This document shows positions 33,559 through 63,149 of a stretch of 64,000 nt of DNA, piece after piece (positions within the stretch are counted from its first letter, which is position 1; every line of letters begins with the position of its first letter). The DNA comes from an uncultured Opitutaceae bacterium (GTDB lineage Bacteria; Verrucomicrobiota; Verrucomicrobiia; Opitutales; Opitutaceae). Made by a program: the position numbers and the translations under genes. The notes under the pieces were generated by a model. That model searched no databases and was not told the origin of the DNA. It saw nothing but the letters and a program-made list of their open reading frames with translations. Where the stretch lies: contig CAXBDS010000003.1 of NCBI GenBank assembly GCA_963974355.1, positions 8,299 to 72,298 on the forward strand, in the 5' to 3' direction.

Positions 33559-33584
33559 TTGCGCTTTAGCATCGTCATCAAACC

Positions 33585-33599: not shown

Positions 33600-33606
33600 A
33601 ATCGGC

Positions 33607-41829: not shown

Positions 41830-42458
41830 CGCTGGGCGAGGGAGCGCTCAATCCGCTTGCGCAGCCGGGCAGGGAAGCGGAGGTCGCTCTCCTGGTTCCA
41901 AATCAGATCGGCATGCCGACGAGAGGGCTCGACATAACGCTCATGACCCGGTCGGGCCGCCGAAGCGTAACGAGAAATGACCTCAGCGACCGAATATCCG
42001 CGCTCCGTCGTGTCTCTTTGAATACGACGGATCAGTCGGAGATCAGCCGGCGTATGGACGAAGATTTTGAGGTCGAGCACGCGGCGCAGTTTCGCATCGG
42101 CGAGCACAAACAGTCCTTCGATCACCACCACCGAGGCCGGAGGCACGAGCGTGGTTTTCCTCGCCCGACGGTAACGGGCGAAATCGTAGTGCGGCATGGC
42201 GACCTCGTTGCCGCGGCGCAGGGAACGAACCTGTTTGAGGAGGAGCGAGGTCTCGAATGCCGCCGGGCAATCAAAGTCGATTTTCCGTCGCGCCGCGGCC
42301 GTGAGGGTGGGATGGTCGCGATAGTAGCAATCATGCGACAAGATCACGCAGCGTTCCGCCCCGAGCTCCCCCGCCAACTGGGCGGCCAAACGGCTCTTGC
42401 CCGAGGCGGTGCCTCCGGCAATCCCCACCACCAGAAGAGGACTCGCGGCGCTTTTCAC
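41826..42458 (-). CDS. udk: Uridine/cytidine kinase family protein (Tyr-type, predicted cytidine-preferring)
   Basis: GIAGGTASGKS, HDCYY, YDFARY, VIEG, RLIRRIQRD...ERG and YVEPS...ADLI motifs. Confidence 0.88.
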   Translation of the reverse strand: MKSAASPLLVVGIAGGTASGKSRLAAQLAGELGAERCVILSHDCYYRDHPTLTAAARRKIDFDCPAAFETSLLLKQVRSLRRGNEVAMPHYDFARYRRARKTTLVPPASVVVIEGLFVLADAKLRRVLDLKIFVHTPADLRLIRRIQRDTTERGYSVAEVISRYASAARPGHERYVEPSRRHADLIWNQESDLRFPARLRKRIERSLAQR

Positions 42459-42844
42459 TCGGTGGGGTGCGCCGCGAGCAATTCGCGCACGCGCGCGGCC
42501 AGTTGGGCGGGGCTGAAAGGTTTGCGAAAGAACGCCTGCACGCCAAGCGCCCGTCCCTCGGCTTCGATATGGGTTTCGCCCGCACCAGTGAGGAAAATGA
42601 TCGGGAGCAGGCGGTGGGCCGAATCTTGTCGAATCTCAGCCACCGCCGTGAGGCCGTCGACGTCCTTCATGTGCACGTCAAAAATGCCCAGCGCGACCGG
42701 TCGGGTCCGGATAATTTCCAACGCATCCAGGCCGCTGGTTGCGGTGATGATGGTCGCATCGATCGTGCGAAGGGTGAAGCCGACCAAACGCAGCATATGC
42801 GGTTCGTCGTCGACGATAAGGATGGTGGGGAGCTGCTTGGTCAT
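42455..42844 (-). CDS. Single-domain response regulator (REC)
   Basis: ILIVDDE, IFDVHM, FLTG and RKPF motifs; ATGA overlaps on both sides. Confidence 0.9.
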   Translation of the reverse strand: MTKQLPTILIVDDEPHMLRLVGFTLRTIDATIITATSGLDALEIIRTRPVALGIFDVHMKDVDGLTAVAEIRQDSAHRLLPIIFLTGAGETHIEAEGRALGVQAFFRKPFSPAQLAARVRELLAAHPTE

Positions 42845-44559
42845 CGGCAAAGAGAGGCCACCAACACGGTGCGGTCGTCGGCGATCGTGGCGGGGTCGAG
42901 TTTCAGCGCAATTGGATCCAGCAGGGCGGCGATGAACTCCGGCGGATTCAGTTCGAAACGGGATACCGCGAACTTCAGATAGATTTCCGGTCCGAGCATC
43001 AGCTCTCCATCGGGGCCGGGCAGTTCGTAACAACCATCGGTGTAAAGGACGAGTCGATCCCCCGTATCCATCGGTAAAGGCAATGCCTCATACTGGGTGT
43101 CGGGGAGGATCCCGAGTGGCACGTTTCCACCGCTAGGTTCAATGAAACGTCCATCCGGGCGAAGAATGGCGGGAGCGCAGTGCCCGGCATTCGAGAAGCT
43201 CGGGAGCGCCCCCGGCGTCGGCGGTAGAATCACCAAAATCGCGGTGATGAACATTCCGAGGCGCACGAGATCGGGAAATAATTGGCGGTTGAGGTCGCTT
43301 AGAATTACACTCGGAGACGATTCCACGGCTGAGAGGGCCCGCAACGAGCTTCGTAGCATGGCCGCAAGCAAAGCTGCGGGCACGCCTTTGCCCATCACGT
43401 CCGCCACGAGCACCATCAGCGTGCCATCATGCAAGGTCACCACATCGAAGTAGTCTCCGCCAACCTCCCGCGCCGGGCGACATTCGCCGTGAACCCACCA
43501 CCGCTCGGGGGGCGGAAAAACATCCGGCAGCAACGAGCGTTGGATACCGGACGCGACCTTGATCTCCTGTTCGAGGCGAAGCTGCTGATTACGTTCCTGC
43601 CAAAGGTTGTCCGTCGCTTTCGCGATGCCCACAAAGTCCGCCACGGCTTGGAGCAACTCCACCTCGCCACCAGAAAACGACTGCCGTTGCGCGCCGCGCA
43701 CCACCACCAGCGTCCCTAGTGTCTTGCCTCCAAACTCCACCGGCAGGACGCACAGATGACACGTATTGGCCATGGCGGCGAGAGGGTCGCCATCGGGGAG
43801 CCGATCAACGCCGCCAACCAGTGGGCGACCATCACGCACGCAGACACTCTCCGCAAAATCGCCTGACAACGGGAGCTCGGCCGGCAGGCCGATATCCAAA
43901 CCGAGCGCGTGAAGTTGCAAGGTGTCGCCGACGGTAAATCGCACAAACAGCGAATCGTGCAGGAGCATCGTCTCCAACCGCTCCCGGACCTGAGCCAGCA
44001 GCTGGTCAAAGGTCGAGCTGGTGGCGAGCAGGCCGGTGAAATGAGTCAGGCAAAGCAGCGTCTCAAAGCTGTTGGCCAAATCCTCCGTCAGGCGACCCAT
44101 GTCGTTTTCGGCGTCGGCGGCGGATTCGATACTCATGCCCGGCTGCCGCTCCACGTTCCAGCGGAGAGTCAAAGTGTGGCCGCCATCCGTATTGGAATGC
44201 TCCCAGCCGTCGGTGTTGGAATCGATAATGAAACCACCTCGGCCTCCTTCGGCGAGCGGATCTTCGGGCAGCTCAGCCCAGTTCGCCGGAGGCTGAAAAT
44301 TGCCGGGATCGCAGACCGTGACAACGACGTGATCCGACGCGACCCGCACCGAAAGCTGCACGGTCGTTTCCGGGTTTCCGGCGCAACCATGTTCGATCGC
44401 ATTGTTAACCGCCTCCACCAAGGGCAGCTCGATTCCGGAAAGTTTCTTTGCATCGACCCCGTGGATACGGCACCAGGCCAGCACACGCTTCACGGCCGGC
44501 CGGATCGACGTGAGACGCGGGGGAAGGGCGAGCTGCAACGCCTCGTCGAGTTCGTTCAT
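42841..44559 (-). CDS. RsbW-type Ser kinase / GAF-like / SpoIIE (PP2C) phosphatase fusion
   Basis: EAVNNAIEHG, CDPG and EGGRG (HATPase_c_2); central GAF-like region; VGGDYFD, VADVMGKG, YTDG and DDRT (PP2C). Confidence 0.9.
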   Translation of the reverse strand: MNELDEALQLALPPRLTSIRPAVKRVLAWCRIHGVDAKKLSGIELPLVEAVNNAIEHGCAGNPETTVQLSVRVASDHVVVTVCDPGNFQPPANWAELPEDPLAEGGRGGFIIDSNTDGWEHSNTDGGHTLTLRWNVERQPGMSIESAADAENDMGRLTEDLANSFETLLCLTHFTGLLATSSTFDQLLAQVRERLETMLLHDSLFVRFTVGDTLQLHALGLDIGLPAELPLSGDFAESVCVRDGRPLVGGVDRLPDGDPLAAMANTCHLCVLPVEFGGKTLGTLVVVRGAQRQSFSGGEVELLQAVADFVGIAKATDNLWQERNQQLRLEQEIKVASGIQRSLLPDVFPPPERWWVHGECRPAREVGGDYFDVVTLHDGTLMVLVADVMGKGVPAALLAAMLRSSLRALSAVESSPSVILSDLNRQLFPDLVRLGMFITAILVILPPTPGALPSFSNAGHCAPAILRPDGRFIEPSGGNVPLGILPDTQYEALPLPMDTGDRLVLYTDGCYELPGPDGELMLGPEIYLKFAVSRFELNPPEFIAALLDPIALKLDPATIADDRTVLVASLCR

Positions 44560-45761
44560 GGCGCGGGATGAGTCAGGCAAAGTTTAAGCAAGGAACGCCG
44601 GACCAGGCGGTCATTTTGCGGCAAGGCGGCTTGGTAAAGCGCGTGGGCCAACTCGTCGGGTTCCTCCGGCGTATGCGAACCGTGAAGATCGGCGAGCGAG
44701 AAAACGCCCGGCGGTGTGTGTGCGAGCAGCGTCCGCGTTTCCTCGGGGACCTGCGGAGCTATTTCACTCCGGGGTAAAATCCCGACCAACCTAAGGCGAC
44801 CCGCGACCACCGCGCCGAGCCAGCGAGCTCGGCGGGCCAGCAACGAACCTCGAGACCCCGTGCTCAAACGAAGCGTTCCGCCTCCCGGCAGTAAAACCTC
44901 CCGTGATATCGCCGCCCCCGCACCCAACGCCAAGAGTTGCGCCGGCAACCAGAGCAGCAGCGCCCACGCGCGTTCCCGCATCGGGGTAGACTGCGGCTGC
45001 TGCTGCATCGCAGCCGCGATAAAATCGTCGGTCAGGTCGGCCCGACCTCCGCTCATCGGGTCGAGCAACGTGGCCCCCAGTAACAGCTTATTGTGCACAT
45101 CCAAATGCGCGCCCACGAAGGTGCCTCCCGCGACCAAAGCATGTTGCAAATGGACATCGGAGCTGAGGACGCAGCCGGGCCCAACCAATGCACCGGGTCC
45201 GATCGTGCAGCCCGACTCGATCAAGGTGCCGGCCCCGATCCAATACGGCGGCACCAGCTTAATGCCGGGGGCCAGCGTGACGCGCGGACCGAGCCAGCCT
45301 TGCGGCTCGCGCTGCGTATCGAGATGAACACGTTCCGGATCACGCTTCGCCAGCCAAGCGAGGTTGAGCGCAAGCCACCATCGCACCAACGATGCGCCGT
45401 CCATCGGCGAGGCGTCGCCGGGATCGCATGCCGGCATGCGATCCATCATCTCGGCAACCAGGCCCAGCGGCGGCGACACGGGCAGTAGGCTGAGTTCTAC
45501 GGACCAATAGGCGCCGCCTTCGAGGGCCGCCCGCACCGCCGCCGGACGGTCCGGGCAATAGAGGGTGACCTGCTTGCAGCCCTGCTGCACAGCATGGTCA
45601 AGCCAGTGGGCGGCCAGCGATTGATTTCCGACTTCCCACAAAATAGGCGGGAGATCACGACGCGCTAGCGAATCGAGCACGCTCCAATCCGGCGCGACGA
45701 GCACCAATGCGGGCGCAGGCGATGAGGCGACCGCGACATCTGCGGAGGCAGTCGAACTCAC
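44556..45761 (-). CDS. Degenerate NTP-transferase + left-handed beta-helix + degenerate sugar-transferase fusion
   Basis: PILWEVGNQSLAAHWLDHA, hexapeptide repeats (WIGAGTLIESGCTIGPGALVGPGCVL), C-terminal VVAGRLRLVGILPR; GTGA start overlap inferred. Confidence 0.65.
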   Translation of the reverse strand: MSSTASADVAVASSPAPALVLVAPDWSVLDSLARRDLPPILWEVGNQSLAAHWLDHAVQQGCKQVTLYCPDRPAAVRAALEGGAYWSVELSLLPVSPPLGLVAEMMDRMPACDPGDASPMDGASLVRWWLALNLAWLAKRDPERVHLDTQREPQGWLGPRVTLAPGIKLVPPYWIGAGTLIESGCTIGPGALVGPGCVLSSDVHLQHALVAGGTFVGAHLDVHNKLLLGATLLDPMSGGRADLTDDFIAAAMQQQPQSTPMRERAWALLLWLPAQLLALGAGAAISREVLLPGGGTLRLSTGSRGSLLARRARWLGAVVAGRLRLVGILPRSEIAPQVPEETRTLLAHTPPGVFSLADLHGSHTPEEPDELAHALYQAALPQNDRLVRRSLLKLCLTHPAP

Positions 45762-47787: not shown

Positions 47788-48102
47788 ATGAGTCTCGTAA
47801 TTCAGACAGCGCTCACTGACGGTTGCCTCAAAGTTGTCCCCACGGTGTCGCGACTGGACGCGGCGGTCGCCCGTGACTTCAAAGCGGAAATTGAGAAAGC
47901 GTGGACCGCCGGGGTTTCGTCCGTGGAAATCGATATGACGGCCGTCGAGTTCGTCGACAGTTCGGGCGTCGGGGCACTGTTAAGCGTGTATCGCAAACTT
48001 CCGCCGGGGGCAGGCGTGACCCGCCTCGTCGGCATTCGTCCCGGCGTGCTCGCGGTGCTGGAGCTGCTCCGCCTCCATCGCGTATTCGAACTGGGCAACT
48101 AA
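47788..48102 (+). CDS. STAS anti-sigma-factor antagonist (SpoIIAA/RsbV-like)
   Basis: RLDAAVA, IDMTAVEFVDSSGVGALL and VLELLRLHRVF motifs. Confidence 0.9.
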   Translation: MSLVIQTALTDGCLKVVPTVSRLDAAVARDFKAEIEKAWTAGVSSVEIDMTAVEFVDSSGVGALLSVYRKLPPGAGVTRLVGIRPGVLAVLELLRLHRVFELGN

Positions 48103-52423: not shown

Positions 52424-53482
52424 CTAGGGGCCCGAGACGGGCGTGACGAGGTTTGCCTTGCCATCAGGAACCGCAAAATTCCCGCCCTCATTGGCCGCGA
52501 GCGTGCGCACGAACGTCTGTAGCACGGTGCGGGCGTATTTCTGAAGATTCCCCCACGGCACGTCGGGAACCCAGACGATGTCGCGCGGTTCGAGATCGAC
52601 ATCGGGCACTTGGCCCCGACGGATCGCGTCGTAGTCGACGAGGTAAACGGCCGGCTCTTGCAGCGAACCGCGTAAAATCAACACCTGGCCCGTGCGAGCA
52701 CCGGGCCGCACGTCCCGCGCCGCAGCGATGGCCGAGACCAATGTCACTCGATCTCGGAAGCCGACCGCTTTCGGTTGGTTGACCGCGCCAAGGACATAAA
52801 TCTCCTGTGCCAGCGCGGACGGCAGATAAATGTAATCTCCCGGCTCTAGGGCCACGTTTTGGCTGAGGTCGCCTTGGTTAAAAAGACGCACGAAATCCAC
52901 CGGCACCATCTCGCCCTCCCGCACAAGAAAGCTGTGACGCAGGTCCGCCAGTTCTTCGGTGGTGCCGGAAAACCGCGACGTGAACAATCCGCCCGCCCGC
53001 CCCACGCCTTCCAGCAAAGTCAGCGGCTGGTCCAGAGGATAGAGCCCCGGCGTGTTCACCCGACCGAGAATCCAAACCCGCCGACTGCGAACGCGCCGTA
53101 ACGTGAGCCCGACCTGCGGATCCCGGTAGTAAGTCGTCAATCCCTTGACCAGCTGTTGACGGAATTCGTCAAGGGTGAGGCCCTCTGCCCGTTGAGCGGG
53201 CAAGAGATCGTAGTAGACCTTACCGTCGGGCATGACGAGGCATAGTCGACGGGTGTTGGGCAGGCCTAGGATATCCACCTCGACCGCGTCACCCGGCCCG
53301 AGGATAAACGGTTTGGGCACCAACGCTTCAGCCGGAAGCGCAGCCGCATCAAGCACGGTCGTCGGCTGCGTGAGCGGTTGGGAATCTGGCACCGAACGCG
53401 CGGGCGGGCGTCGACTTTGACAGCCCGTTAAAAGCAGCATGCCACCGAGCACGACCATCAAGCGTAAGCGCGCGGTCGTCAT
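52424..53482 (-). CDS. Polysaccharide export (OPX/Wza-like, SLBB) lipoprotein
   Basis: Lipobox LLLTGC, LGPGD, PDGKVYY, VWILGRVNTPG and YVLGAVNQP motifs. Confidence 0.88.
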   Translation of the reverse strand: MTTARLRLMVVLGGMLLLTGCQSRRPPARSVPDSQPLTQPTTVLDAAALPAEALVPKPFILGPGDAVEVDILGLPNTRRLCLVMPDGKVYYDLLPAQRAEGLTLDEFRQQLVKGLTTYYRDPQVGLTLRRVRSRRVWILGRVNTPGLYPLDQPLTLLEGVGRAGGLFTSRFSGTTEELADLRHSFLVREGEMVPVDFVRLFNQGDLSQNVALEPGDYIYLPSALAQEIYVLGAVNQPKAVGFRDRVTLVSAIAAARDVRPGARTGQVLILRGSLQEPAVYLVDYDAIRRGQVPDVDLEPRDIVWVPDVPWGNLQKYARTVLQTFVRTLAANEGGNFAVPDGKANLVTPVSGP

Positions 53483-54519
53483 CGCACTTGTGGCAACGAT
53501 CCACTCGGCAACCACGGTCCGAGATTTTGATCCGTCCAGGTCGATGTCATGCTGCTGAGAAACGTGGTGATCGCCATGTCGACGAGTTCCTCTCCGAGCC
53601 GCCACGGCCGCTTGGAAACGTAAACGATGTCCTTGGGTTGAAGCGGCACGTCGCGCGTCTTCCCCTGCAGCACCGATTCAACATCCACCACGATCGTTTC
53701 CGGATGCTCCAGGGACCCACGAATGATGAGCACGCGGCTCCGGTAGGCCTGCCGACTAAAACTGCCGCGAACCGTGATCGCTCCGATGGCGGTAAGCTGC
53801 GGCGTGAATCCCAGCACCCCCGGCTGGCCGACCTCGCCGAGCACGTAAACGTCGTTGCTCACCGCGGAGGCGAAATAAATGAAATCGCCGGGCTCGATCT
53901 GCACATTTTGCGACAAATCGCCTTCAAAAAAGAGCTTCTCCAAGTCGATGGGCAGGCGTTTCTCATGACGCACGACAAAGGAGCGGGGGAGGTCGGCCAA
54001 CTCCACGGTGTTACCCTCAAACAAGCCGGTCTCCACCCCGCGGGCGCGCGCCACGGCTTCAATTAGGGTGATCGGATATTCGAGCGAAAACACCCCCTTG
54101 TCGACCACCTTGCCGAGCAGCACATAGCGTTTGCTGCGCAGTTCGACCGGGGTGATGATCACCCGCGGGTGGTTGTAGAAATCCTTCAAAAGCACCTCGA
54201 TAGCGGCGCGCAACTCGTCAATCGTTCGGCCGCTCGCCATCACCTCCGAGGCCTGCAGGTAACCGATGCGCCCGTCAGGCCGGACGAACACCTGCGCCCG
54301 TTCCAACTCCGGTTGTCCGTAGAGTGAAAAATCCAGAATGTCGCCAGGGCCCAACGTGTAGTTGTCCCGCCATGACGGCGGCGCAGAAGGGACGTTCGCC
54401 GCAACGCCCTTCGCCCCCGCCGGCGCAGCGCCCTGACCCGTCGCAACTGGTGCATCGACGCCAACCAGCGGCGTGAGGCTCGCGAAAAGCCAGACCGAGA
54501 ACAGCGTAATCGCGCGCAT
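53479..54519 (-). CDS. Second polysaccharide export (OPX/Wza-like, SLBB) protein
   Basis: Non-lipoprotein signal peptide; YTLGPGD, VRPDGRIGY, YVLLGKVVDKG and VYVLGEVGQPG motifs. Confidence 0.88.
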   Translation of the reverse strand: MRAITLFSVWLFASLTPLVGVDAPVATGQGAAPAGAKGVAANVPSAPPSWRDNYTLGPGDILDFSLYGQPELERAQVFVRPDGRIGYLQASEVMASGRTIDELRAAIEVLLKDFYNHPRVIITPVELRSKRYVLLGKVVDKGVFSLEYPITLIEAVARARGVETGLFEGNTVELADLPRSFVVRHEKRLPIDLEKLFFEGDLSQNVQIEPGDFIYFASAVSNDVYVLGEVGQPGVLGFTPQLTAIGAITVRGSFSRQAYRSRVLIIRGSLEHPETIVVDVESVLQGKTRDVPLQPKDIVYVSKRPWRLGEELVDMAITTFLSSMTSTWTDQNLGPWLPSGSLPQVR

Positions 54520-56405
54520 CAACTGGATCGACGACGTTTCCACCACGGCAGCGCATCGGTGACGATAAGGCCGTGCAACCGGATCCCGGCGTCGCGCAAA
54601 AGGCGGGCCTGGCGTTGCCACGTTGAAATTGAGGCATGATCCGCCGAGATCACCAGCACGGCGCCCCCCCATTCCCGCGCGAGAGTGAGGGCCGGCTCCA
54701 CCGTGTCGCCCGATAGCCGAGCCCAGAAATCGGAAGGCGCGGAGTTGTGGGCTGCGGCTTGCGCCGAAGCGAGGGTCAACGCAGCAGGATCGAGCCGAAT
54801 CGCCCCCGGCAACGACGGGTGTGCGCTCGTGCCGGCGTCGACCGTGATCAACTCCGGTTGCAGGCGAAAGGCTTCCGCCAAGAGGGCGCCCCAAAGCCGA
54901 CCTTCCGAGGGAGTTGCAGCCGGAGCCCAAAGCACCGCCGGGCGATTCTCCGCCGCGGCCGGTGTGGCCCATGTCACCCAAAGCGAACGCACGGTGGAGG
55001 CGGGATTCGCTCCCGGCTCGAGCGTGGCCAGCAAGGGTGCCTTGAAAATCCGCCGGGCTTCAAAAGCGGAGCGTAACCGTTGATCGAATACCTCGCGCAC
55101 AATCACCAGGAACACTCCGAAACCACCGCCCAGCACCAATCCGGCGGCGGCGTAAACAAACAATTTCAAAGTGCGCGAGGTGGACGCAACCGACTGAGGT
55201 GTCGCCGTGCTGAAAATCTGGTAATACCCGGGAGCACGTTCGCTATAGAGCGTTGCCTCTCGCAACCGACTGGCCAGCAACTGCCGCGCCGTTTCCAAGC
55301 CCCTTTGCACGAGTTTTTGGCGAGCCAAGGCCGCCACTTTTTCCGGCAGCTCTTCCACCCGGGCCCGGGCGGAGTCGCGCAGCTCTGTCAATCCAGCCAG
55401 TTGTTTTTCGGCCCCGTCACGCCGCGCCCGCAGATCGATTAGCTCGAGATAGAGCGTTCCTCCGATGGCGGTCGACGCATAGTCAGCCAACGACAGTTCG
55501 CGACCCTTGTCAGCCGCCGCCGATTCCAACGCCGCGACCTTGGCCTGCAGGTTTTGCACGATCGGGTTCTTCTCGGTGAAGCGTCCCAATGCGTCCTGCA
55601 GTTCGGCACGTGCCGTGATGAGGCGATCGTCGTTCGCCGAGTAGCGCGCAAGTTCCGATTCGAGTGCCTTCAGCTTAAACTCGACCGTCTGGAGATCGAT
55701 GCGCGCGGTCTCGTAGCGGAGGTCGAGATCGGCCAACTGACGCAAAAACACGTCGGTCTGTTTTTCGGCGTCGACCAGATTTTCGCGTCGCGAAAACGCG
55801 AGCATCTCTTGGTTGATGCGATTCAGATCCGCATCGGTGGTCTCGATCTGCTGCTGAAGGTAAGTGCGAACCTCGCGGCTTTCCCGCGTCTGCAACTCGC
55901 GCGAAAATTCTACGATCTCCGCCGCCCATAGATTCACCAGATCGGCCGCTGCTTGGGCTGATTCCGTTCGCCGAGCCGTGAGTTGCAGAAAGTCGGTGTT
56001 CCGGATTTCGACGGCGTCGGTGTTGAGCCGCAGCATACCCACGGATATCGGTGGATCGGCCTGCGCGGAGACTCGCGTAAGCACATTGTCGGACAGGGCC
56101 GAGGTGATCAGCGTCGCGGTGCTAAGTGATCGTGGCTTGTAGGGATCACCGATCTCACCGGCTCTAAATGTGGTTGAGGGTTCGCGCTTGATAAGCCGTG
56201 CCATCGCCTCGTAGCGGTCACTCGCCCGGAAGTGCCCCGCAGCGAGGAACAGCATGAGCCCCAACACCGCGCTGAGGATAACCCAGCGATACCGTTCGAG
56301 TAATGATCCCGCGAGCCGGAATGGATCGAAGACGATGTCGAGTCCTATTCCCCCTGGGGCCGGCGCCGGCGCTGGGTGAGGGGAGGACGTTGTATCAGCG
56401 TTCAT
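54519..56405 (-). CDS. Polysaccharide co-polymerase (Wzc/GumC-like) with degenerate kinase domain
   Basis: TM, long coiled coil containing FTEKNPIV, second TM, then REVFDQRLRS and a C-terminal domain without a GK(S/T) Walker A. Confidence 0.8.
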   Translation of the reverse strand: MNADTTSSPHPAPAPAPGGIGLDIVFDPFRLAGSLLERYRWVILSAVLGLMLFLAAGHFRASDRYEAMARLIKREPSTTFRAGEIGDPYKPRSLSTATLITSALSDNVLTRVSAQADPPISVGMLRLNTDAVEIRNTDFLQLTARRTESAQAAADLVNLWAAEIVEFSRELQTRESREVRTYLQQQIETTDADLNRINQEMLAFSRRENLVDAEKQTDVFLRQLADLDLRYETARIDLQTVEFKLKALESELARYSANDDRLITARAELQDALGRFTEKNPIVQNLQAKVAALESAAADKGRELSLADYASTAIGGTLYLELIDLRARRDGAEKQLAGLTELRDSARARVEELPEKVAALARQKLVQRGLETARQLLASRLREATLYSERAPGYYQIFSTATPQSVASTSRTLKLFVYAAAGLVLGGGFGVFLVIVREVFDQRLRSAFEARRIFKAPLLATLEPGANPASTVRSLWVTWATPAAAENRPAVLWAPAATPSEGRLWGALLAEAFRLQPELITVDAGTSAHPSLPGAIRLDPAALTLASAQAAAHNSAPSDFWARLSGDTVEPALTLAREWGGAVLVISADHASISTWQRQARLLRDAGIRLHGLIVTDALPWWKRRRSS

Positions 56406-57535
56406 GAGTGGGCGGCGGCGCGATAGATTTCGGCGGTGGCCTGAGCGCAATGAGTCCAAGCGAATTGTTGGGCCCGCGCGAGCCCGCGTTGTCGCCAATC
56501 ATCGGGCGATGACAGCACGTCAAGGAGGCCGGCAACCATGGCGTCGGGGTTTTCCGGATCGACGATCCGGGCCGCGTCAGCCACGACCTCGCCGAGTGAA
56601 CCGCGATCCGAGCACACCACGGGGCAACCACAGGCCATTGCCTCTATCGGCGGCAGTCCGAATCCCTCAAAGAGCGACGGATATGCCAAAAGATCGGCCC
56701 CGGCATACCACAGGGGCAAATCTTCGGCGGTGACAAAACCCGTCGTGCGAATCCGGTCCCGCAGCGGCGATGCCGCCACGCGGGCATGAATCACCTCTGC
56801 TCCATGCCAATCCGCACCGGCCAGCACGAGGTCGTGGGGCAGGCCCGGCTGGATAATCGCCAGACGTTCAAACGCCTCGATCAAGCGCACGTGGTTTTTC
56901 GCCGGGTGCTCCAAGCGAGCGAGATAAACCATGTAAGGGCGCGGCAGATTCTGACGGAGCCGAAACTCCGCCAACGCGCCATCGTCAGCGGGGCGAAAGC
57001 GGCGATGATCAATACCGTTCCAGACCACATCGATCTTGTCCACGGGCCAATGAAAGAACCGTTCCACATCCGACGCGGTCGCCTGGCTCACGGTAACCAG
57101 ACGGCGCGCCTTCCGAGCCAATCGCGGAACCACGTGGCGCCCGTAAGCCATCCGGGCGGCATCGTATTTTCCCCGCACGTGAAACGCCGCGCAGTCGTGA
57201 ACCGTAACCACCTGCGCGCACGGAGGTCGAAACAAGATGCGGCGGTAGCTGGGGATGTGCACCACATCGGCGTTGATCGCGCGTAAGCGTCCCGGGAAAA
57301 GGACCTGATGCCACCAAATGTCCCTGACCGCGGGTCGCCACTTTTCTGATACCTCCTCCCAGGAAACACGATCAAGCCACGGCTCGAAGTGAATGCGGTC
57401 ATTCCGCAGGCCAAAAAGTGTCAGTCGAATATCCGGGCACGTGCTGACAAGCCCCTCTATCAGGCCAAACAAATATGCGGCTACGCCCGACTTCCCCCGC
57501 TGGTTGACACTGGTGCTGATCGCGACGTGAGGCAT
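56402..57535 (-). CDS. GT4 glycosyltransferase
   Basis: VVTVHD, VWNGID, KNHVRL and YPSLFEGFGLPPIEAMACG motifs. Confidence 0.94.
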   Translation of the reverse strand: MPHVAISTSVNQRGKSGVAAYLFGLIEGLVSTCPDIRLTLFGLRNDRIHFEPWLDRVSWEEVSEKWRPAVRDIWWHQVLFPGRLRAINADVVHIPSYRRILFRPPCAQVVTVHDCAAFHVRGKYDAARMAYGRHVVPRLARKARRLVTVSQATASDVERFFHWPVDKIDVVWNGIDHRRFRPADDGALAEFRLRQNLPRPYMVYLARLEHPAKNHVRLIEAFERLAIIQPGLPHDLVLAGADWHGAEVIHARVAASPLRDRIRTTGFVTAEDLPLWYAGADLLAYPSLFEGFGLPPIEAMACGCPVVCSDRGSLGEVVADAARIVDPENPDAMVAGLLDVLSSPDDWRQRGLARAQQFAWTHCAQATAEIYRAAAHS

Positions 57536-57540: not shown

Positions 57541-58953
57541 TCAGGACGTTTCAAACAAGCGGTCGAGATGGGTCTGGCGCAGCAATAAATCAGGTTGGCC
57601 GGTGACACCGCGGAGGGAAAGTTCACCGCCGCGTTTACGCGTGAGTCGGCGGATTTTCAGCAGCCAGCCGATGCCGGAACTGTCGATCAGACGGACGTGG
57701 CTGAGGTTGAGGCTGAGATGATTTGAGGTCGGGTGTCGGCGCCACGCCTCGTTGAGCCAACGGCTGGCGGCCGCGAGACGAGGTGCCGTAAGATCGCCCT
57801 GGCACGAAAGCACCAACTCCCCCGGACCGGACGGTTCCAAGTGCGGGGTCATCCCCGGTGTTTGTTGACGGCACTGTTCGACTGCCGAGTCCACCGTGGT
57901 GGCGCAGACGAAGAGTCGGTCGAGATGGACCGCCGCAAGGAGATTCAACACGTAGGGCGACGGGGCCAATAGCACCAAACCTGCGCCTTGGTTTTTCACC
58001 TCACGATAGAGGGAAACCAAACGTCCGAGTCCAAAACTATCCATGAACACCACCGCCCGTAGATCGAGTAAGAGACCGCTGGGCGTCTCCGCGATCTCAC
58101 AAGCCGGTAGTGACTCCACTGTGCCACTTTCAATTCGCCCGGCCCAAACCACGAGTCTCAAGTCGGCGGGTATCGTCGGAGTTCCAGCGGAAACGACGTC
58201 GCGCGAATCGAGCCCGCGTGACTGATCCTTGAAACGCCTAATGAAAAAAACGAGTTGGGCCGAGTATTTCAGGGTTCGCGCCCAAGGATGATGGAGCCAC
58301 CAATGAACCCAGGCGAGCCCGCGACGCCCCCAAGCTGTAGGCACGCGGCTGACCCGACCGGCCGTCACGGCCAGACCGTCGCCGATACCGATCAACAGGG
58401 GCGTATCCAACCACGGCAATTGACGATAGACCCACTCGGTTTCGATGGCCGGGGGTAATCCCACGAGCAGCACTTGAAGATTCGCGTTTCGGATTTGCTC
58501 TCGCTGCCAGTCCTCGTCGGCGACCGGGCCGTGTAAGAGGGTCGGGGGAGAGAGCGTCGGATGCGCTACCGACAACCGCGCCGCTGCGGCCGTGAGGTCT
58601 TCTTTTTGGGGGCCGAGCAGACCGAGTCGCCATCCCTTTTCCGCCACGAGTTTCGCCACGATATCCGCGATTTCGCCCCCCGTAAACGGAGCCGGAATCG
58701 CCACCCCCAGCCGACCAGCGGCCCATGCCAGCGCGGAACTCGCGCACAGCACTGCGGTGCATTCGGCCAAGATCGTCTGGCGCAACACGTCGCGGTCGCA
58801 AGTCACGGCCTCGGACATCGTGCCAAGCGCGATTTGGTTCGGGCGCCGGGACGCGACACAATCAGCCAACAAATCGGGCAAGGCGGCACGCTCAATCGCG
58901 AGCAAGGGCAGGCCGAGGACGACGGATTGCTGACCTAGGGCAGCTACGGTCAT
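57541..58953 (-). CDS. Degenerate WecG/TagA (GT26) domain fused to two STAS domains
   Basis: Colinear with the upstream paralog but with eroded catalytic motifs; STAS motifs FMDSFGLG and LIDSSGIG. Confidence 0.75.
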   Translation of the reverse strand: MTVAALGQQSVVLGLPLLAIERAALPDLLADCVASRRPNQIALGTMSEAVTCDRDVLRQTILAECTAVLCASSALAWAAGRLGVAIPAPFTGGEIADIVAKLVAEKGWRLGLLGPQKEDLTAAAARLSVAHPTLSPPTLLHGPVADEDWQREQIRNANLQVLLVGLPPAIETEWVYRQLPWLDTPLLIGIGDGLAVTAGRVSRVPTAWGRRGLAWVHWWLHHPWARTLKYSAQLVFFIRRFKDQSRGLDSRDVVSAGTPTIPADLRLVVWAGRIESGTVESLPACEIAETPSGLLLDLRAVVFMDSFGLGRLVSLYREVKNQGAGLVLLAPSPYVLNLLAAVHLDRLFVCATTVDSAVEQCRQQTPGMTPHLEPSGPGELVLSCQGDLTAPRLAAASRWLNEAWRRHPTSNHLSLNLSHVRLIDSSGIGWLLKIRRLTRKRGGELSLRGVTGQPDLLLRQTHLDRLFETS

Positions 58954-60401
58954 TCGATCGAAAACAGGTTATCCATCTTTGCCAGACGGAATACATTGCG
59001 CACGTTTTCCGTGGGCTGGCTGATAATGAGTTTGGCGCCGGGGCGCGCCGCCGTCAGGCGGTGGACATGCAACAGGAGCCCAAGTCCGCTGCTGTCCATA
59101 AAACGCACCGCAGACATATCGACGACCACGCGCTTCGCCGTGGGACGGGCCGCCCAAAGATCATCGATCCAACGCAACAGACCGGGAGTGCGCGTGGCAG
59201 TAAGTTCGCCTTGGATCGGGAGCATCAAGTCCTCCGCACTACTCGCCGCAGCTGAAGTCGGTCGCGTCAATCCTAGCGCCGCCCGAGCTCGCGCCGGCTC
59301 GTCGATGATCGGAAATAATCGCGCCAGCTTCATGGCGTCGAGCAAACCGGCCACGGCCGGCGACGGATTCACCAAGGCGAGACCGCCCCCCCCGGCGATG
59401 GCGCGCCGATAGGCCGCGAGCATAAAGCCCAGACCGCTGCTATCGAGAAAGCTCACTGCGGAGGTATCGAGCGCGATGGCGGTGCCCGCCGACAAATCAG
59501 CGGAGGGATCGACTATTTGGGCGCCTGCAATCGCCGCCGCATCGACCCGGCCGGACCAGCGCACGGAACGCACATCGCCGGACAGCATCGGGGCAGCCGG
59601 CGGCGGGACATTCGGGCTGGATACCGCGGCCTCGGGGCGCACGGCCAACGCCCGGCGTTGCGCGCGAAGTGCCCGCACAAAGAACAGCAAATCGACGAGG
59701 TAACGACTAAAGAGACGACGCGGCTCCTGCATGAGCCGAAACACCCATTCCGCACCGACCACCTGCATCCACCGTGGCGCACGCTTAAATTTACCCGCGA
59801 GAAAATCCACCGTCGCGCCGACACCCACGCTCATCGGCACGCCGAGGCGACGATGATGCATAAAGATCCACTTCTCTTGTTTCGGACAGCCGAAGGCGAC
59901 GAAAAGCACGTCAGGACGAGCGCTTGTGATGCGTTGCTTGATCGTGTTGAAGTCCATTTCGAGCAACTTTGCAAACGAGGGCGAGTAGCCATCGATTTGC
60001 AACCCGGGGTGGCTCGCCCGCAAATTGGCCAAAGCCAGCGGAAGCGTTTCTTCTCCGCCCCCGAGCAGGAAAATCTTCCACCCCTTCTCCGCCGCCTCAG
60101 CCGCGAGGCGAGGCACCAGATCCGAGCCGGCCACGCGCTCCCGCAGTGGTGCGCCCAACGCCTTCGACGCCCACACCAACGGTGTGCCGTCGCACAACAC
60201 CAAATCGGCCTCGACGAGGATGCGTTGCAGTTCGACATCCTCACTCGCCTGAAACGTGAAGTCCAGATTGGCGGTCGCCCAATAACACGGCTGACGCCGC
60301 TCGATCAATTGGCCGAGGCGAGTGACGGTCTCATCCATCGTGACGTCGTGAAACGGAACTCCGAGGATCACGACCGAGCGGGGTGGGGCGAGGTTAGCCA
60401 T
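58950..60401 (-). CDS. WecG/TagA (GT26) glycosyltransferase fused to two STAS domains
   Basis: TANLD, LCDGTP, RVAGSDL, FGCPKQEKW and EWVFRLMQEPRRL; STAS motifs FLDSSGLG and FMDSSGLG. Confidence 0.9.
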   Translation of the reverse strand: MANLAPPRSVVILGVPFHDVTMDETVTRLGQLIERRQPCYWATANLDFTFQASEDVELQRILVEADLVLCDGTPLVWASKALGAPLRERVAGSDLVPRLAAEAAEKGWKIFLLGGGEETLPLALANLRASHPGLQIDGYSPSFAKLLEMDFNTIKQRITSARPDVLFVAFGCPKQEKWIFMHHRRLGVPMSVGVGATVDFLAGKFKRAPRWMQVVGAEWVFRLMQEPRRLFSRYLVDLLFFVRALRAQRRALAVRPEAAVSSPNVPPPAAPMLSGDVRSVRWSGRVDAAAIAGAQIVDPSADLSAGTAIALDTSAVSFLDSSGLGFMLAAYRRAIAGGGGLALVNPSPAVAGLLDAMKLARLFPIIDEPARARAALGLTRPTSAAASSAEDLMLPIQGELTATRTPGLLRWIDDLWAARPTAKRVVVDMSAVRFMDSSGLGLLLHVHRLTAARPGAKLIISQPTENVRNVFRLAKMDNLFSIE

Positions 60402-61605
60402 GGCGGGAAATCAGCGTTTCGTAGTGGGCGTGAAGGTGTCGGGTGAGGCTGGGCCAGCCGTAGCGTTCGAGGATACGCCGGCGGCCAGCGACGCGCAGAC
60501 GGGCCCGCAGAGCCGCATCGCTCGCCAAGCGCTGGATGGCGGTCGCAAATTCGTCCGGCGTATCCGCAAGAAGGATATGCTCGTCATGGGTCAGCTCAAG
60601 CCCCTGCGCGCCAAGCGTGGTGGAGATCACCGGGCAACCAATGGCCAGCGATTCGACGATCTTCAGCCGGGTGCCACCGCCGATCCGGAGCGGCACGATC
60701 TGAAAGTGGGCAGTCTGGTAGTGGGGCCGCACATCGGGCACTTCCCCCGTGACCATCACCCCCGTCAGTTCGCCATGGGCCTGAACGGCCGCCAAGGGAT
60801 TGCGCCCAACAATCTGCACCCGGCGTTGCGGCACCAGCGCCCGCACCAGCGGATCAATCGCGGCAAAATACCAACCCAAGGCATCCACGTTGGGCGAATA
60901 ATCCATCGCGCCGCAAAAAAGCCACGTCGGCGCCTCGGGCTCGCGGGGAGGGAAGCTGTCTTGGTCAAAAAAAGTCGTATCGCACCCGTTGGGTAAAACG
61001 AAGACCGGCGCATTTGAGCTGACGTGTTCCCGCATGAAATCCGCATCATCGGGGCCGCAGACCACAATACTCGCGAGATCGCGCGCGGCCGCCCGTTCGA
61101 CCCGGCGTAGTTTCCAAAGATTTTCCCGGCGCAGCCAACGCTCCTTGGTGGAGAGCTGGAGGGTTCTCAGCTCCTCGGTTTGGAACAATAGATCGACTCG
61201 GCTGCGATCCATTGATCGCGGCACAGGATGGGGCAGGCGGCGCACATAGGGCCAAAGGACGAGATCACAGAAATGGATGAGCCCGTAGTCATGCCCGTCT
61301 GCAAATCGGGCCAGGGCATCGTGAGCCGACGGATCCTCCCAATGCCGGATGGTCGTCGGACAGAGGTTGAGCAGCCGGTCCGGAAACAGACGCGGCCAGG
61401 ACGGATGGCGAAACCGATGGAAGTGAACGCGCCGACAAAAGCCCTCAAAAACCGGAAGCTGCGCTTCGGCCTCCCCATTTTCGTCGAGGCAAAAGAGATC
61501 GATCTCGTAATAGCGGGCGAGTTCACGAAGCAGATGAAACGTGCGCTGGAAAGTCCCTCGGGTTACGGGATAAGGAGCGTAAGGATAAACAACGAGGACG
61601 CGCAT
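60394..61605 (-). CDS. GT4 glycosyltransferase
   Basis: FCGAMDYSPNVDA, IVGRNP, and PLRIGGGTRLKIVESLAIG motifs. Confidence 0.92.
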   Translation of the reverse strand: MRVLVVYPYAPYPVTRGTFQRTFHLLRELARYYEIDLFCLDENGEAEAQLPVFEGFCRRVHFHRFRHPSWPRLFPDRLLNLCPTTIRHWEDPSAHDALARFADGHDYGLIHFCDLVLWPYVRRLPHPVPRSMDRSRVDLLFQTEELRTLQLSTKERWLRRENLWKLRRVERAAARDLASIVVCGPDDADFMREHVSSNAPVFVLPNGCDTTFFDQDSFPPREPEAPTWLFCGAMDYSPNVDALGWYFAAIDPLVRALVPQRRVQIVGRNPLAAVQAHGELTGVMVTGEVPDVRPHYQTAHFQIVPLRIGGGTRLKIVESLAIGCPVISTTLGAQGLELTHDEHILLADTPDEFATAIQRLASDAALRARLRVAGRRRILERYGWPSLTRHLHAHYETLISRHG

Positions 61606-61701
61606 AGAGTCGTGCAGAATGACTATCTAACCGCCAAAATCTCGGTCTGCCGGATGTTTCGCGAGGGCGAGCAAACCACGACTCGCAACGTGTTACTTAA
61701 A

Positions 61702-61727
61702 CGCATTTGCGTAAACACGTAAATGCG
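61702..61727. repeat. Inverted repeat: terminator of the activator gene or a DNA-binding site
   Basis: CGCATTTGCGT-AAAC-ACGTAAATGCG (11-bp arms, one mismatch); followed on the minus strand by TTTAAGT. Confidence 0.55.
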
Positions 61728-61742
61728 GGTCGGGCCGCGAAA

Positions 61743-63149
61743 TTACGAGCCGCTGATCCGATCACGCGCGGCTTTGGTCCGCCAGCGATAGAGCGTCGTC
61801 GGGTGAATGCCGAGTTGCGAGGCGACCCATGAGTGGTCTCCGTCGCTTTGGGCCAACAGCGTTTCGGCCAACTCACGCCGTTGGCGCTTGTTGAGGGTCG
61901 TGGTCGCCCCGGGAACGGAGACCGGGGCAGCGTTAGCGACCGCCGGCGCAATCGCGGCCGCGGGCGGTGACCAAGCGCCGTCGCGCAGGACGGGGCCGTG
62001 CGCCAACAGGACCAAACGCTCGATCGTGCTGCGCAACTCGCGCACGTTCCCCGGCCACGTCCAAGCCTGCAGGCGCTGCAGCAACGCGGGTTCCATACTT
62101 GTAACCAAACGCCCGTGGTGCTCCGCCGCGACCTGCAGGAAATGACGACAGAGCAGGGGAATATCGTCCGCGCGCGCACGCAGAGGCGCGAGTTCGAGGG
62201 TAATATCCGCCAGCCGGTAGTAGAGGTCTTCGCGAAAGGTTCCGGCCGCGACTCGGGCGAGAAGATTGGCGTTGGTCGCCGCGATGATGCGGACGCTTAC
62301 GGCGTAGTCGGTGCGCGCCCCGAGACGACGCGCCCGGCGAGTTTCAAGAAAGCGCAACAGCTTGGGTTGTAGCGTGCGGTCGAGATCGCCAATTTCATCC
62401 AAAAACAGGGTGCCTCCGTCGGCTTGCTCAACTAGTCCGGGCCGATCAGTCACGGCGCCGGTGTAGGCGCCCTTGGTTGCCCCAAACAGCTCCGCCTCAA
62501 GCAGCTCCCGCGGCAGGGCGGTGCAATTGATCGCGACGAAAGGACGTTGTGGTTCGGTTCCCGTGGCGTGCAAAGCCTCGGCCACCCGCTCCTTGCCCGT
62601 GCCTGACTCGCCCAGCACCAGCACCGTGGCAGAGGTCGGCCCCACGCGAGCAATCATCTCGCGCAAGCGCTGCCATGATTGAGACTGACCAATGAGGCCA
62701 TCGGGGGGCGGAGCGACCGGCTTGGGAAACAGCTGTGCCCACGCATGCTCGGCCGCCGCCGCCGCTTCCAATGCGGAACGCCAACGCCCGGCCGATTCAT
62801 CCACCGCGACCGCATCATAAGCGCCCTCGCGCAAAGCCGTCGTCGTCTCCGCCGTGCGTGCCCCAGCCGGAAGGAGCACGACAAAAAACCGTCCTGATTC
62901 CGCCAGACGCACGCGGACAAAACGCCACGCCTCGGTCGTCAGCTCGGCGGCCCCGATCAGAAGAACAGGGGTCGCCGTCGAGTCTTGGCCAGCTGCGGTC
63001 GCGGGCCATTCCATCCAGGCTTCGAGCGAAGAAAAGAGCGGCGACGGATCACCCCGGCTGGCGGCAGCTTGAAGGAGGTTACGGCGGATCGCCTCAGTCG
63101 CTCCACCGACAAATATGCATTGAATATGCATGGTAAATGCAATGCACAT
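61743..63149 (-). CDS. Sigma54-dependent activator (bEBP) with atypical N-terminal domain
   Basis: GESGTGKE, INC, ELFGATKGAYTGA, TLFLDEIG, QPKLLRFL, FREDLYYRL, WPGNVREL and a Fis-type HTH; start is 63149 or 63131. Confidence 0.93.
   Translation of the reverse strand: MCIAFTMHIQCIFVGGATEAIRRNLLQAAASRGDPSPLFSSLEAWMEWPATAAGQDSTATPVLLIGAAELTTEAWRFVRVRLAESGRFFVVLLPAGARTAETTTALREGAYDAVAVDESAGRWRSALEAAAAAEHAWAQLFPKPVAPPPDGLIGQSQSWQRLREMIARVGPTSATVLVLGESGTGKERVAEALHATGTEPQRPFVAINCTALPRELLEAELFGATKGAYTGAVTDRPGLVEQADGGTLFLDEIGDLDRTLQPKLLRFLETRRARRLGARTDYAVSVRIIAATNANLLARVAAGTFREDLYYRLADITLELAPLRARADDIPLLCRHFLQVAAEHHGRLVTSMEPALLQRLQAWTWPGNVRELRSTIERLVLLAHGPVLRDGAWSPPAAAIAPAVANAAPVSVPGATTTLNKRQRRELAETLLAQSDGDHSWVASQLGIHPTTLYRWRTKAARDRISGS
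63112..63146. repeat. Helically phased ATGCA repeats
   Basis: AATATGCAT (63112), AATATGCAT (63123) and TAAATGCAA (63134) at an 11-nt period, plus ATGCA at 63142. Confidence 0.55.

Follow-up and report, generated by a model that had tools for sequence, protein, structure and literature searches.

Background

The direct control of a polysaccharide-building enzyme through a phosphorylated STAS domain has been described for All4160 of Anabaena sp. PCC 7120, in which Ser74 of the STAS domain is phosphorylated by the kinase Alr3423, giving an inactive protein that the SpoIIE-type phosphatase HenR reactivates (PMC13555669, 2026). Fusions between STAS domains and sugar transferases were called cyanobacteria-specific by the same authors (PMC13555669). 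Here we describe two adjacent paralogous genes, A and B, found in 64,000 nt of DNA from an uncultured marine Opitutaceae bacterium (assembly GCA_963974355.1, contig CAXBDS010000003.1, positions 8,299 to 72,298 of the forward strand; this whole stretch is called the window). Each of them encodes a glycosyltransferase domain of family GT26 (WecG/TagA/CpsF), intact in A and degenerate in B, followed by two C-terminal STAS domains, and the window holds the same three component types as the All4160/Alr3423/HenR system, namely a STAS-fused polysaccharide enzyme, an RsbW-type kinase and a PP2C phosphatase. The two systems differ in that All4160 is a Bac_transf (PF02397) priming phosphoglycosyl transferase with one STAS domain, at its N-terminus, whereas A and B have two C-terminal STAS domains on GT26; moreover, the kinase and the phosphatase are separate proteins in Anabaena and are fused in one GAF-containing protein in the window, which also has a dead paralog of the enzyme. 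The A/B pair is an analogue of All4160, not a member of that protein family. A first-pass annotation of this DNA had proposed a phospho-switchable pair of active and inactive proteins and had known of no characterised example; as to the general idea this is outdated, since All4160 is switched by phosphorylation of Ser74 (PMC13555669).

The only GT26 enzyme with both a structural and a biochemical characterisation is TagA of Thermoanaerobacter italicus, described in two TagA papers. In this enzyme D65 acts as the general base, T37, N39 and Q167 place the sugar, D191 touches the ribose, and R214, R221 and R224, which are located in the C-terminal tail, bind phosphates. Variants of D65, R214, R221 and R224 each had less than 25% of the wild-type activity, a drop of more than 20-fold was reported for changes of D65 and R221, and TagA without its tail is inactive. 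According to the same papers, an inactive dimer formed core to core stands against an active membrane-bound monomer, and the tail docks on the surface that is buried in the dimer; the dissociation constant of the dimer is 7.4 μM for the tail-less protein and 210 μM for a solubility-enhanced full-length form, hence about 30-fold tighter binding for the former. The TagA/TarA proteins of T. italicus and its relatives (structures 5WB4, 5WFG, 7MPK and 7N41) are like A in sequence and functional residues, and the models of A and B match them with a template modelling score (TM) of ~0.9. Unlike A and B, which carry ~230 extra residues, TagA has neither STAS domains nor a dead paralog; its monomer/dimer regulation offers a ready mechanism for the pair.

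The syp polysaccharide locus of Vibrio fischeri encodes SypA (STAS), SypE (kinase-REC-PP2C, with an HPK-like Ser kinase at the N-terminus and the PP2C at the C-terminus), SypG (a sigma-54 activator) and the hybrid kinases SypF and RscS; SypA acts below transcription, on a target that has long been sought. The window resembles this locus, by domain content only, in having a sigma-54 activator, a hybrid kinase, a small STAS protein and a kinase/PP2C fusion among polysaccharide genes. The central domain of SypE is a REC domain, whereas the enzyme of the window has a GAF domain and the REC is a separate protein. Furthermore, the only STAS protein of syp is free-standing, whereas the window has four further STAS domains fused to GT26 proteins, which are a candidate class of targets. 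The partner-switching systems of Bacillus (SpoIIAA/SpoIIAB/SpoIIE and RsbV/RsbW/RsbU) share with the window the STAS fold, the DSSG motif, the HATPase_c_2 kinase and the SpoIIE-type phosphatase; their output is a sigma factor, whereas none is evident in the window, where STAS domains are fused in tandem to an enzyme and to a pseudo-enzyme.

As for dead paralogs, in the streptococcal GtfA/GtfB pair a non-catalytic partner with a glycosyltransferase fold supports the active glycosyltransferase. In Trypanosoma brucei the dead paralog named prozyme regulates the active enzyme AdoMetDC (PMC5201418). As in the case of B, these are dead copies kept under selection together with an active counterpart; they are obligate partners, however, whereas B is dispensable in close relatives and has its own putative phospho-switch domains.

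Results

Architecture of the A/B pair

The first-pass annotation had claimed two paralogs with the architecture GT26-STAS-STAS, coupled by an ATGA overlap, and both are present at 57541-60401 on the minus strand. Their features are the following.

58950..60401, minus strand: gene A, intact GT26 (WecG/TagA/CpsF) glycosyltransferase with two C-terminal STAS domains, 483 aa (Pfam)
59787..60401, minus strand: A, GT26 core, residues 1-205 (TagA alignment); catalytic Asp71 (TagA D65) at 60189-60191
59643..59786, minus strand: A, C-terminal tail helices, residues 206-253; E218, R222, R229 and R233 correspond to TagA E210, R214, R221 and R224
59298..59576, minus strand: A, STAS1, residues 276-368 (Pfam and SpoIIAA alignment); putative phospho-acceptor Ser321 at 59439-59441 (LDSSGLG)
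58953..59249, minus strand: A, STAS2, residues 385-483 (best Pfam stretch 390-482); putative phospho-acceptor Ser437 at 59091-59093 (MDSSGLG)
57541..58953, minus strand: gene B, degenerate GT26 paralog with two STAS domains, 470 aa (Pfam)
58351..58953, minus strand: B, GT26-like core, residues 1-201; Ala71, at the TagA D65 site, at 58741-58743
58213..58350, minus strand: B, degenerate C-terminal tail, residues 202-247 (TagA alignment)
57886..58164, minus strand: B, STAS1, residues 264-356; Ser306 at 58036-58038 (MDSFGLG)
57544..57837, minus strand: B, STAS2, residues 373-470; Ser425 at 57679-57681 (IDSSGIG)

At the junction the minus strand reads ...TCG ATC GAA TGA CCG..., with the ATG of B overlapping the TGA of A. 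The motifs that had been quoted were also found, both for A (LCDGTP, ERVAGSDL, GCPKQEKW and AEWVFRLMQEPRRL) and for B (LCASSA, APFTGGEI, PPAIETEW and LAWVHWWLHHPWAR). End to end, the two proteins are 30% identical (E 1e-61).

Both pass the cutoff (27.4 bits) of the Pfam profile for GT26, PF03808 (Glyco_tran_WecG), A with 200.2 bits (E 2.7e-59) and B with 74.6 bits (E 1.1e-20), and in each of them Pfam finds two STAS stretches (E 8e-28 and E 7e-29, respectively). The NCBIfam model TIGR00696, with a cutoff of 69, is passed by A (140 bits) and failed by B (30.5 bits), and the scores against the equivalog models TarA, WecG and EpsA are far under their cutoffs. With the STAS family model TIGR00377 (cutoff 53.45) we obtained 99.4 bits for A and 82.9 for B.

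Catalytic residues and fold of the GT26 domains

The first 250 residues of A align along the full length of TagA (7MPK, E 9e-42), and A is identical to TagA at the ten functional positions T37, N39, D65, R83, Q167, D191, E210, R214, R221 and R224, all of which are kept in every A-type relative examined as well. In the core of B, L43, T45, A71, E171 and A195 stand at the sites of TagA T37, N39, D65, Q167 and D191, and R83 is gone too; in its tail, A214, W218, A225 and K229 stand at the sites of E210, R214, R221 and R224. These derived active-site states are shared by the four B-type proteins that we found (see below), in which about nine of the ten TagA residues, essentially all of them, are replaced. 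The earlier description of B as an apparent pseudo-enzyme is thus supported.

We then considered the fold. The AlphaFold2 model of A has a mean predicted local distance difference test score (pLDDT) of 92.6 and a predicted TM-score (pTM) of 0.90, and that of B has a pLDDT of 91.7 and a pTM of 0.90, with a weaker tail (pLDDT 81-84). With the TagA crystal structures 5WB4 and 7MPK (GT-E fold) as references for superposition, Foldseek gave TM 0.92-0.93 for A; the N-terminal domain of B matched the TagA crystals with TM 0.89-0.92 and a root-mean-square deviation of 1.7-1.9 Å, at 20-22% identity. By these data A is predicted to be a structural member of GT26 and, by residue criteria, a catalytic member too, whereas B is predicted to be a structural member with the GT-E fold and not a catalytic one.

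STAS domains and their serines

In the alignment with the solved SpoIIAA chains (1TH8/1AUZ/1TID) the phospho-acceptor position is the first Ser after the Asp, with the variant 1TID having Ala in this position. The equivalent of SpoIIAA Ser58 had been reported for all four STAS domains and is there in each of them, as S321 and S437 in A (motifs DSSG and DSSG) and as S306 and S425 in B (DSFG and DSSG). Among 217 full-length members of the family, the Ser is found in 92% of the STAS1 and in 96% of the STAS2 domains (plus 3% with Thr), so that it is as conserved as the catalytic D65 (96%) and R221 (97%). The DS pair is retained in STAS1 of all four B-type proteins. In STAS2, a B-specific GQP stands where A has a near-invariant NVRNV. 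The C-terminal domains of both A and B match SpoIIAA, RsbV and TM1442 with TM 0.72-0.83 in Foldseek, and from sequence and model we assign them to the SpoIIAA/RsbV type.

Selection acting on B

The open reading frame (ORF) of B is intact, with 462-475 aa, in at least four lineages in which synonymous sites are saturated. Between the orthologues of the window, L001 and L002 (L and P numbers denote other loci and proteins, respectively), the nonsynonymous divergence (dN) of B reaches 0.52, against 0.25 in A; the synonymous divergence (dS) is saturated, hence the dN/dS of B at this depth, ~0.14-0.24, is a rough value. Between near-identical alleles (dS ≈ 0.04), where the comparison relies on about 30 substitutions per gene, B has a dN/dS of 0.39 (16 nonsynonymous and 14 synonymous changes, p=0.011 vs neutrality) and A has a dN/dS of 0.35 (15 and 15, p=0.005 vs neutrality). 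B is therefore under selection, as A is, and not decaying: loss of catalysis goes together with a TagA fold, intact frames and a dN/dS of 0.14-0.39, which argues for a pseudoenzyme that is kept.

The first-pass annotation had placed this selection on the regulatory domains, which is too narrow. In fact, the identity between B orthologues is 53-54% in the dead GT core, 54-56% in STAS2, 46% in STAS1 and 31-36% in the C-terminal tail, so that the core is as conserved as STAS2 and more than STAS1. Between orthologues of A, by contrast, no region is better conserved than the tail (82-84% identity); in one B-type protein, P0124, ~12 residues of the tail are deleted. The motifs LLVGLPP, LPWL, CxxQTP (in the linker between the STAS domains), GIGWLL and GQP are invariant among B-type proteins. 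Selection thus holds both the dead core and the STAS domains of B, and is relaxed on the catalytic and membrane-docking tail. At the TagA dimer-interface sites F71/A72, A and B alike retain W/A.

Distribution, synteny and phylogeny

A search with a word index retrieved 2506 matches to the A-type GT26-STAS-STAS protein (~485 aa), the best 120 of which all have this architecture, and a scan of reference genomes gave ~40 full-length loci, belonging to Opitutaceae, Chthoniobacterales, Verrucomicrobiales, Limisphaerales and a few other taxa. Across the family, this architecture is shared by more than 120 clusters. In the databases these proteins are named 'WecB/TagA/CpsF family glycosyltransferase' or '.../anti-anti-sigma factor', and a literature search on GT26-STAS-STAS proteins found no paper. 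GT26-STAS-STAS proteins are a phylum-wide family of Verrucomicrobia. The sequence of the locus was found in sequencing runs of DNA metagenomes only, and in no RNA runs.

For B, the word-index search returned two relatives, P0002 and P0003, with 49-50% identity to B, and a profile search run exhaustively over 1.84 billion representatives yielded only two B-type clusters and one further B-type protein, P0124, after which the scores drop to the level of A-type proteins. B lies directly downstream of an A-type gene in 4/4 lineages (the window; L001/L101/L103; L002-L004; L089). No second GT26 gene was found in the ~40 full-length GT26-STAS-STAS loci of the reference genomes, and this, with the rarity of B-type proteins in the profile search, ruled out that the family generally has a B; its occurrence is restricted to a small clade of Opitutaceae-like bacteria. 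Hence, of the architecture and pairing for which a search had been suggested, the architecture turned out to be phylum-wide and B to follow A always, while the pairing is rare and limited to four lineages.

Relatives that lack B (L005, L085/86, L087 and L088) have an A protein 66-72% identical to that of the window, as close as the A proteins of the loci bearing B. The gene order in them, identical to that of the window but for B, is sigma-54 activator – GT4 – A – GT4 – polysaccharide co-polymerase (PCP) – Wza – Wza – FIST – hybrid histidine kinase – 374-aa protein – STAS. In a neighbour-joining tree B is monophyletic (100/100) and forms a long branch inside the Opitutaceae-type A clade. A clade of the B-bearing loci is not supported, the bootstrap value for their A proteins being 0/100. 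A single old tandem duplication followed by repeated loss of B fits these data, with a resolution limited by long-branch effects. A decaying duplicate, absent from relatives, had been named as the outcome that would speak against a function of B: B is indeed missing from most relatives, but its frames and dN/dS are not those of a decaying gene.

The kinase/PP2C module and other degenerate family members

The partner-switching component types (STAS, RsbW-type kinase and PP2C) are all encoded in the window. The genes concerned, other than A and B, are listed here together with the REC and PRK/uridine-kinase-family genes that come after the kinase gene.

47788..48102, plus strand: stand-alone STAS protein with the motif VDSSGVG, ~104 aa from the Met at 47788, callable from 47656 (Pfam)
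42841..44580, minus strand: RsbW-type Ser kinase (HATPase_c_2)-GAF-PP2C/SpoIIE protein, bifunctional by its domains (Pfam)
42455..42844, minus strand: single-domain REC response regulator, 129 aa, its start overlapping the stop of the kinase gene
41826-42458, minus strand: PRK/uridine-kinase-family protein (window ORF)

The protein of 42841..44580 is the only kinase/PP2C protein of the window, and its N-box/G-box and PP2C metal-site motifs are intact. Homologues of the stand-alone STAS protein in relatives have 104-124 aa. A 340-aa plus-strand ORF (41913-42935) is probably spurious, the minus strand coding there for the REC and the PRK/uridine-kinase-family proteins.

The first-pass annotation had pointed to the 42841 enzyme as the kinase of the STAS domains; such an RsbW-type kinase/PP2C does exist at the locus and is co-conserved with the GT26-STAS-STAS family. 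Precisely, orthologues of the kinase-GAF-PP2C protein occur in L090-L093, and in L090, directly behind the FIST and histidine kinase genes, the STAS gene adjoins the kinase gene in divergent orientation. A REC gene comes after the kinase/PP2C gene in L090, L091, L093, L094, L095, L098 and L099. In distant Verrucomicrobia (L017, L019, L027 and L040) the module is found 6-9 kb upstream of the A-type gene, within one and the same exopolysaccharide locus, as a block with the order hexapeptide transferase – STAS – kinase/GAF/PP2C – REC – phosphodiesterase-like protein, and in L094/95 and L098/99 a GT26-STAS-STAS gene immediately follows the kinase/PP2C and REC genes. Of the evidence for the fused STAS domains being clients of the 42841 enzyme, this co-conservation is the strongest, although it is an association and not a proof.

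B-type proteins are not the only members of the family with a degenerate GT26 domain. We found ~12 other representatives of clusters at 50% identity with at least three substitutions at the TagA functional positions and both DS motifs kept, among them P0149, from a metagenome-assembled genome of Verrucomicrobiia (D65A, T37L and D191N), and P0222 (D65A, R83C and R221A). The genes of these two, listed here, come after HATPase_c_2-(GAF)-SpoIIE and REC genes.

L094:4322-5812, L095:5023-6513, L098:6001-7404 and L099:2903-4306: degenerate GT26-STAS-STAS proteins P0149 and P0222

In a neighbour-joining tree, unbootstrapped, the dead forms fall in at least three separate positions. None of the four other dead forms examined, two of which are P0149 and P0222, has an intact GT26 neighbour, and those of L096 and L100 are wholly alone. 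By residue criteria, inactivation of the GT26 domain with the STAS domains kept is a recurring theme in this family. As a separate observation, a Bac_transf priming transferase gene and two small STAS genes are present just upstream in L094.

The surrounding locus

The genes around the pair and the sensory genes of the locus are the following.

61743..63149, minus strand: sigma-54-dependent activator (bacterial enhancer-binding protein), upstream of the operon (Pfam Sigma54_activat, 214 bits)
60394..61605, minus strand: GT4 glycosyltransferase, overlapping the start of A by 8 nt and kept upstream of A in relatives (Pfam)
56402..57535, minus strand: GT4 glycosyltransferase, 5 nt after B, directly following A in B-less relatives (Pfam)
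54519-56498, minus strand: PCP-like protein, 659 aa, in the position of the polysaccharide co-polymerase, with no Pfam match at E<=0.001
53479-54981 and 52424-53605, minus strand: two tandem Wza-like Poly_export/SLBB proteins (Pfam)
51225-52355, minus strand: FIST-domain protein (Pfam)
49279-51282, minus strand: hybrid histidine kinase HisKA-HATPase-REC-REC (Pfam)

The upstream GT4 gene, A, B, the second GT4 gene and the genes for the PCP-like and the two Wza-like proteins make up one tightly packed operon. The sigma-54 activator is syntenic in L001, L005, L085, L088 and L103; a pattern search for a sigma-54 promoter in front of the operon gave no more matches than expected by chance, and none in the gap 61606-61742. 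The 659-aa PCP-like protein adjoins the GT4 gene in most related loci (240-910 bits), the tandem Wza-like pair also occurs in L085, L087 and L088, and the order of FIST and hybrid kinase is kept in L085, L087, L088 and L090. In the export region (52424..56498) the listed ORF starts run into adjacent genes and are probably placed too far upstream. The conserved block contains no sigma factor gene, and the extracytoplasmic function sigma factor at 17806-18471 is 24 kb off and not syntenic. It is more likely that the module acts on the enzyme itself than through sequestration of a sigma factor, hence we call the system partner-switching-like.

Two proteins without Pfam match recur in these loci: one of 374 aa (48104-49228, plus strand), whose gene in close relatives always separates that of the hybrid histidine kinase from the small STAS gene, and which recurs in distant exopolysaccharide loci, and one of 446 aa (36584-37924, plus strand), which adjoins the Wza genes in many loci and for which a Wzy-type polymerase is a guess. 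In relatives, genes for exosortase EpsH, EpsI and a DUF4114 protein lie just past the sigma-54 activator, in the regions listed here, and on this basis the cluster is an exopolysaccharide locus of the PEP-CTERM/exosortase type.

L001:819-2637, L085:3714-5111, L088:2129-3920 and L103:711-1628: exosortase region in relatives

In the window this region would lie past position 64000. The ORF at 63359-63919 has an atypically low GC content at third codon positions (0.54) and may not be a gene.

Farther from the pair, the minus strand encodes a haem-NO-binding (H-NOX) protein at 29358-29912 and a hybrid histidine kinase at 28003-29358. Both directly adjoin polysaccharide genes, namely those for a Wzx-type flippase (29928-31430), a GT4 (31417-32676) and a GT2 (32692-33645) glycosyltransferase, which suggests a nitric-oxide-responsive control of the latter. 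The nitric-oxide sensor of V. fischeri is likewise an H-NOX/kinase pair. In that species nitric oxide negatively regulates syp-type biofilm formation (V. fischeri review). A DHH-CBS-DHHA2 phosphoesterase gene (33607-35247, plus strand) is followed by a GT4-like ORF (35244-36179, plus strand, 311 aa), which matches GT4 profiles only in their N-terminal half and at the start of the C-terminal half and may be a truncated glycosyltransferase. A sixth STAS domain of the window is the C-terminal one of a SulP sulfate permease (4871-6739, plus strand), unrelated to the exopolysaccharide locus.

Discussion

In an exopolysaccharide pathway of the Wzx/Wza type, A would be the functional GT26 enzyme and, by analogy with TagA and WecG, would attach an early sugar to the lipid-linked repeat unit on the inner side of the membrane, with its tail having to dock on the core in order to complete the active site. 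The two STAS domains of A, with their SpoIIAA-type serines S321 and S437, would most likely be substrates or partners of the single kinase-GAF-PP2C protein (42841-44580), and the balance between kinase and phosphatase would be set by the GAF domain of the latter, by the adjacent REC protein and by the FIST/hybrid-kinase pair. Polymer synthesis would in this way be gated post-translationally at enzyme A, as in Anabaena All4160, and this STAS-gated GT26 design would be ancestral and phylum-wide in Verrucomicrobiota. B would have arisen as a tandem duplicate of A in a small Opitutaceae-like clade, losing catalysis and the function of the tail and keeping, under purifying selection, the GT-E core fold and both STAS serines; most likely it would be a co-translated regulatory subunit of the same switch.

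We give this overall model, that is a phospho-gated A with B as regulatory subunit, a probability of about 0.5; what we infer in it are the phosphorylation, its sign and the heterodimer. For the action of B we prefer a core-to-core A:B heterodimer of the TagA type, which would cover the surface where the tail of A docks, with the STAS domains of B making the association dependent on phosphorylation. Like B, a dedicated dimer partner competing with the tail of A would be expected to have a conserved core and a decayed tail and to be co-translated with A. Taken alone, the heterodimer step is tentative and somewhat short of an even chance. A more far-reaching version would have the phospho-states of the five STAS domains decide whether the dead B clamps A in a TagA-like inactive dimer, a brake of the 'prozyme' type; in this version GT26-STAS-STAS proteins would be the direct output of a SypE/SypA-like module, in which the GT26 domain has repeatedly been made non-catalytic, in B and, independently, in the lineages of P0149 and P0222. 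Such a version is speculative, and we consider it unlikely as a whole.

Several observations weigh against B as a regulatory subunit of a phospho-gated A. B is dispensable and accessory, being absent from close syntenic relatives, where the gap between A and GT4 (at most ~22 nt in L005, L085/86, L087 and L088) contains no remnant of it; the switch would therefore work without B in these equally close relatives. The solo dead forms indicate that a dead GT26-STAS-STAS protein need not act through an active paralog, which tempers the idea of a heteromer that the first-pass annotation had put forward. At the positions of the TagA dimer interface B gives no clear sign of special conservation (5/17 invariant), and in the A proteins of B-bearing loci we found no co-adaptive substitutions beyond those of random partitions. 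Finally, the stand-alone STAS protein encoded near the kinase may be the main or only substrate of the latter.

Some of these observations would also be expected if B acted apart from the catalytic domain of A, either as a decoy or phospho-sink, for which A and the small STAS protein would be rivals in access to the one kinase/phosphatase, or as a STAS adaptor whose dead GT26 core binds elsewhere, e.g. to a lipid-linked intermediate, the membrane, a GT4 enzyme or the export machinery. Dead forms follow kinase/PP2C and REC genes where there is no intact GT26 partner (L094/95 and L098/99) or stand alone (L096 and L100), both serines and the STAS2 domain of B are well conserved, and A shows no co-adaptation. 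On the other hand, a pure decoy does not need a conserved GT core, and that of B is as conserved as its STAS2; moreover, B is translationally coupled to A and never found away from it (4/4 lineages), and we regard an independent action of B as doubtful, although worth keeping in view. The STAS domains might also be constitutive modules binding proteins, membranes or ligands, as in SulP transporters and MlaB, with an Asp-Ser pair that is structural or binds anions or nucleotides. Such roles are known for SLC26/SulP and MlaB, both of which are among the structural matches, the window itself has a SulP-STAS transporter, and the kinase has its own putative small STAS substrate adjacent to it. We consider this quite unlikely, because the best matches in sequence and structure are the phosphorylatable SpoIIAA, RsbV and TM1442 and not SulP or MlaB, the Ser is conserved at 92-96%, GT26-STAS-STAS genes are co-conserved with the kinase/PP2C module and share an operon with it in some lineages, and All4160 provides a precedent.

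That B is a functionless duplicate heading for loss is largely refuted here and now very improbable. It is true that B evolves ~2x faster than A (dN 0.52 vs 0.25), is missing from many close relatives and has lost all catalytic residues, and that the tail of P0124 is partly deleted; against decay, however, are the intact frames of 462-475 aa in at least four lineages with saturated synonymous sites, a dN/dS equal to that of A (0.14-0.24 at depth, 0.39 with p=0.011 between close alleles), the invariant B-specific motifs and the confident TagA-like AlphaFold2 fold. Equally hard to credit is a B that is still an active glycosyltransferase by means of a different catalytic constellation. It keeps the GT-E fold and a Pfam GT26 score above the gathering threshold, and a Glu at the Q167 site in 3/4 B proteins is a possible carboxylate. 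But D65, T37, N39, D191 and the three tail arginines are replaced by non-equivalent residues, in TagA changes of D65 or R221 cost more than 20-fold and variants of D65, R214, R221 and R224 fall below 25% of activity, and conservation in B is lowest in the tail, the part needed to complete the active site, some of which is deleted in P0124.

Control of bacterial exopolysaccharides is mostly understood as transcriptional or as mediated by cyclic di-GMP, and not until 2026 was direct phospho-control of a biosynthetic enzyme by partner switching demonstrated, in a single priming transferase of a cyanobacterium. An analogous design occurs phylum-wide in Verrucomicrobiota, with an enzyme of the GT26 class, tandem C-terminal STAS domains and a co-conserved SypE-like kinase/phosphatase, and this architecture suggests that the pathway is controlled at the enzyme and not only at the level of gene expression. 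B is a rare bacterial candidate for a pseudo-glycosyltransferase regulator, and the similar losses elsewhere in the family suggest a recurring evolutionary route. The fused STAS domains also provide a testable hypothesis on what the small STAS regulators of polysaccharide loci, such as SypA, might act upon. The components are small, soluble or peripheral and easy to express, which makes the predictions directly testable. If the more far-reaching version, with B clamping A in an inactive dimer, is true, an early lipid-linked step of exopolysaccharide synthesis in these bacteria would be under a phospho-controlled brake, and Rosetta-stone logic would point to glycosyltransferases as the targets of free STAS regulators such as SypA.

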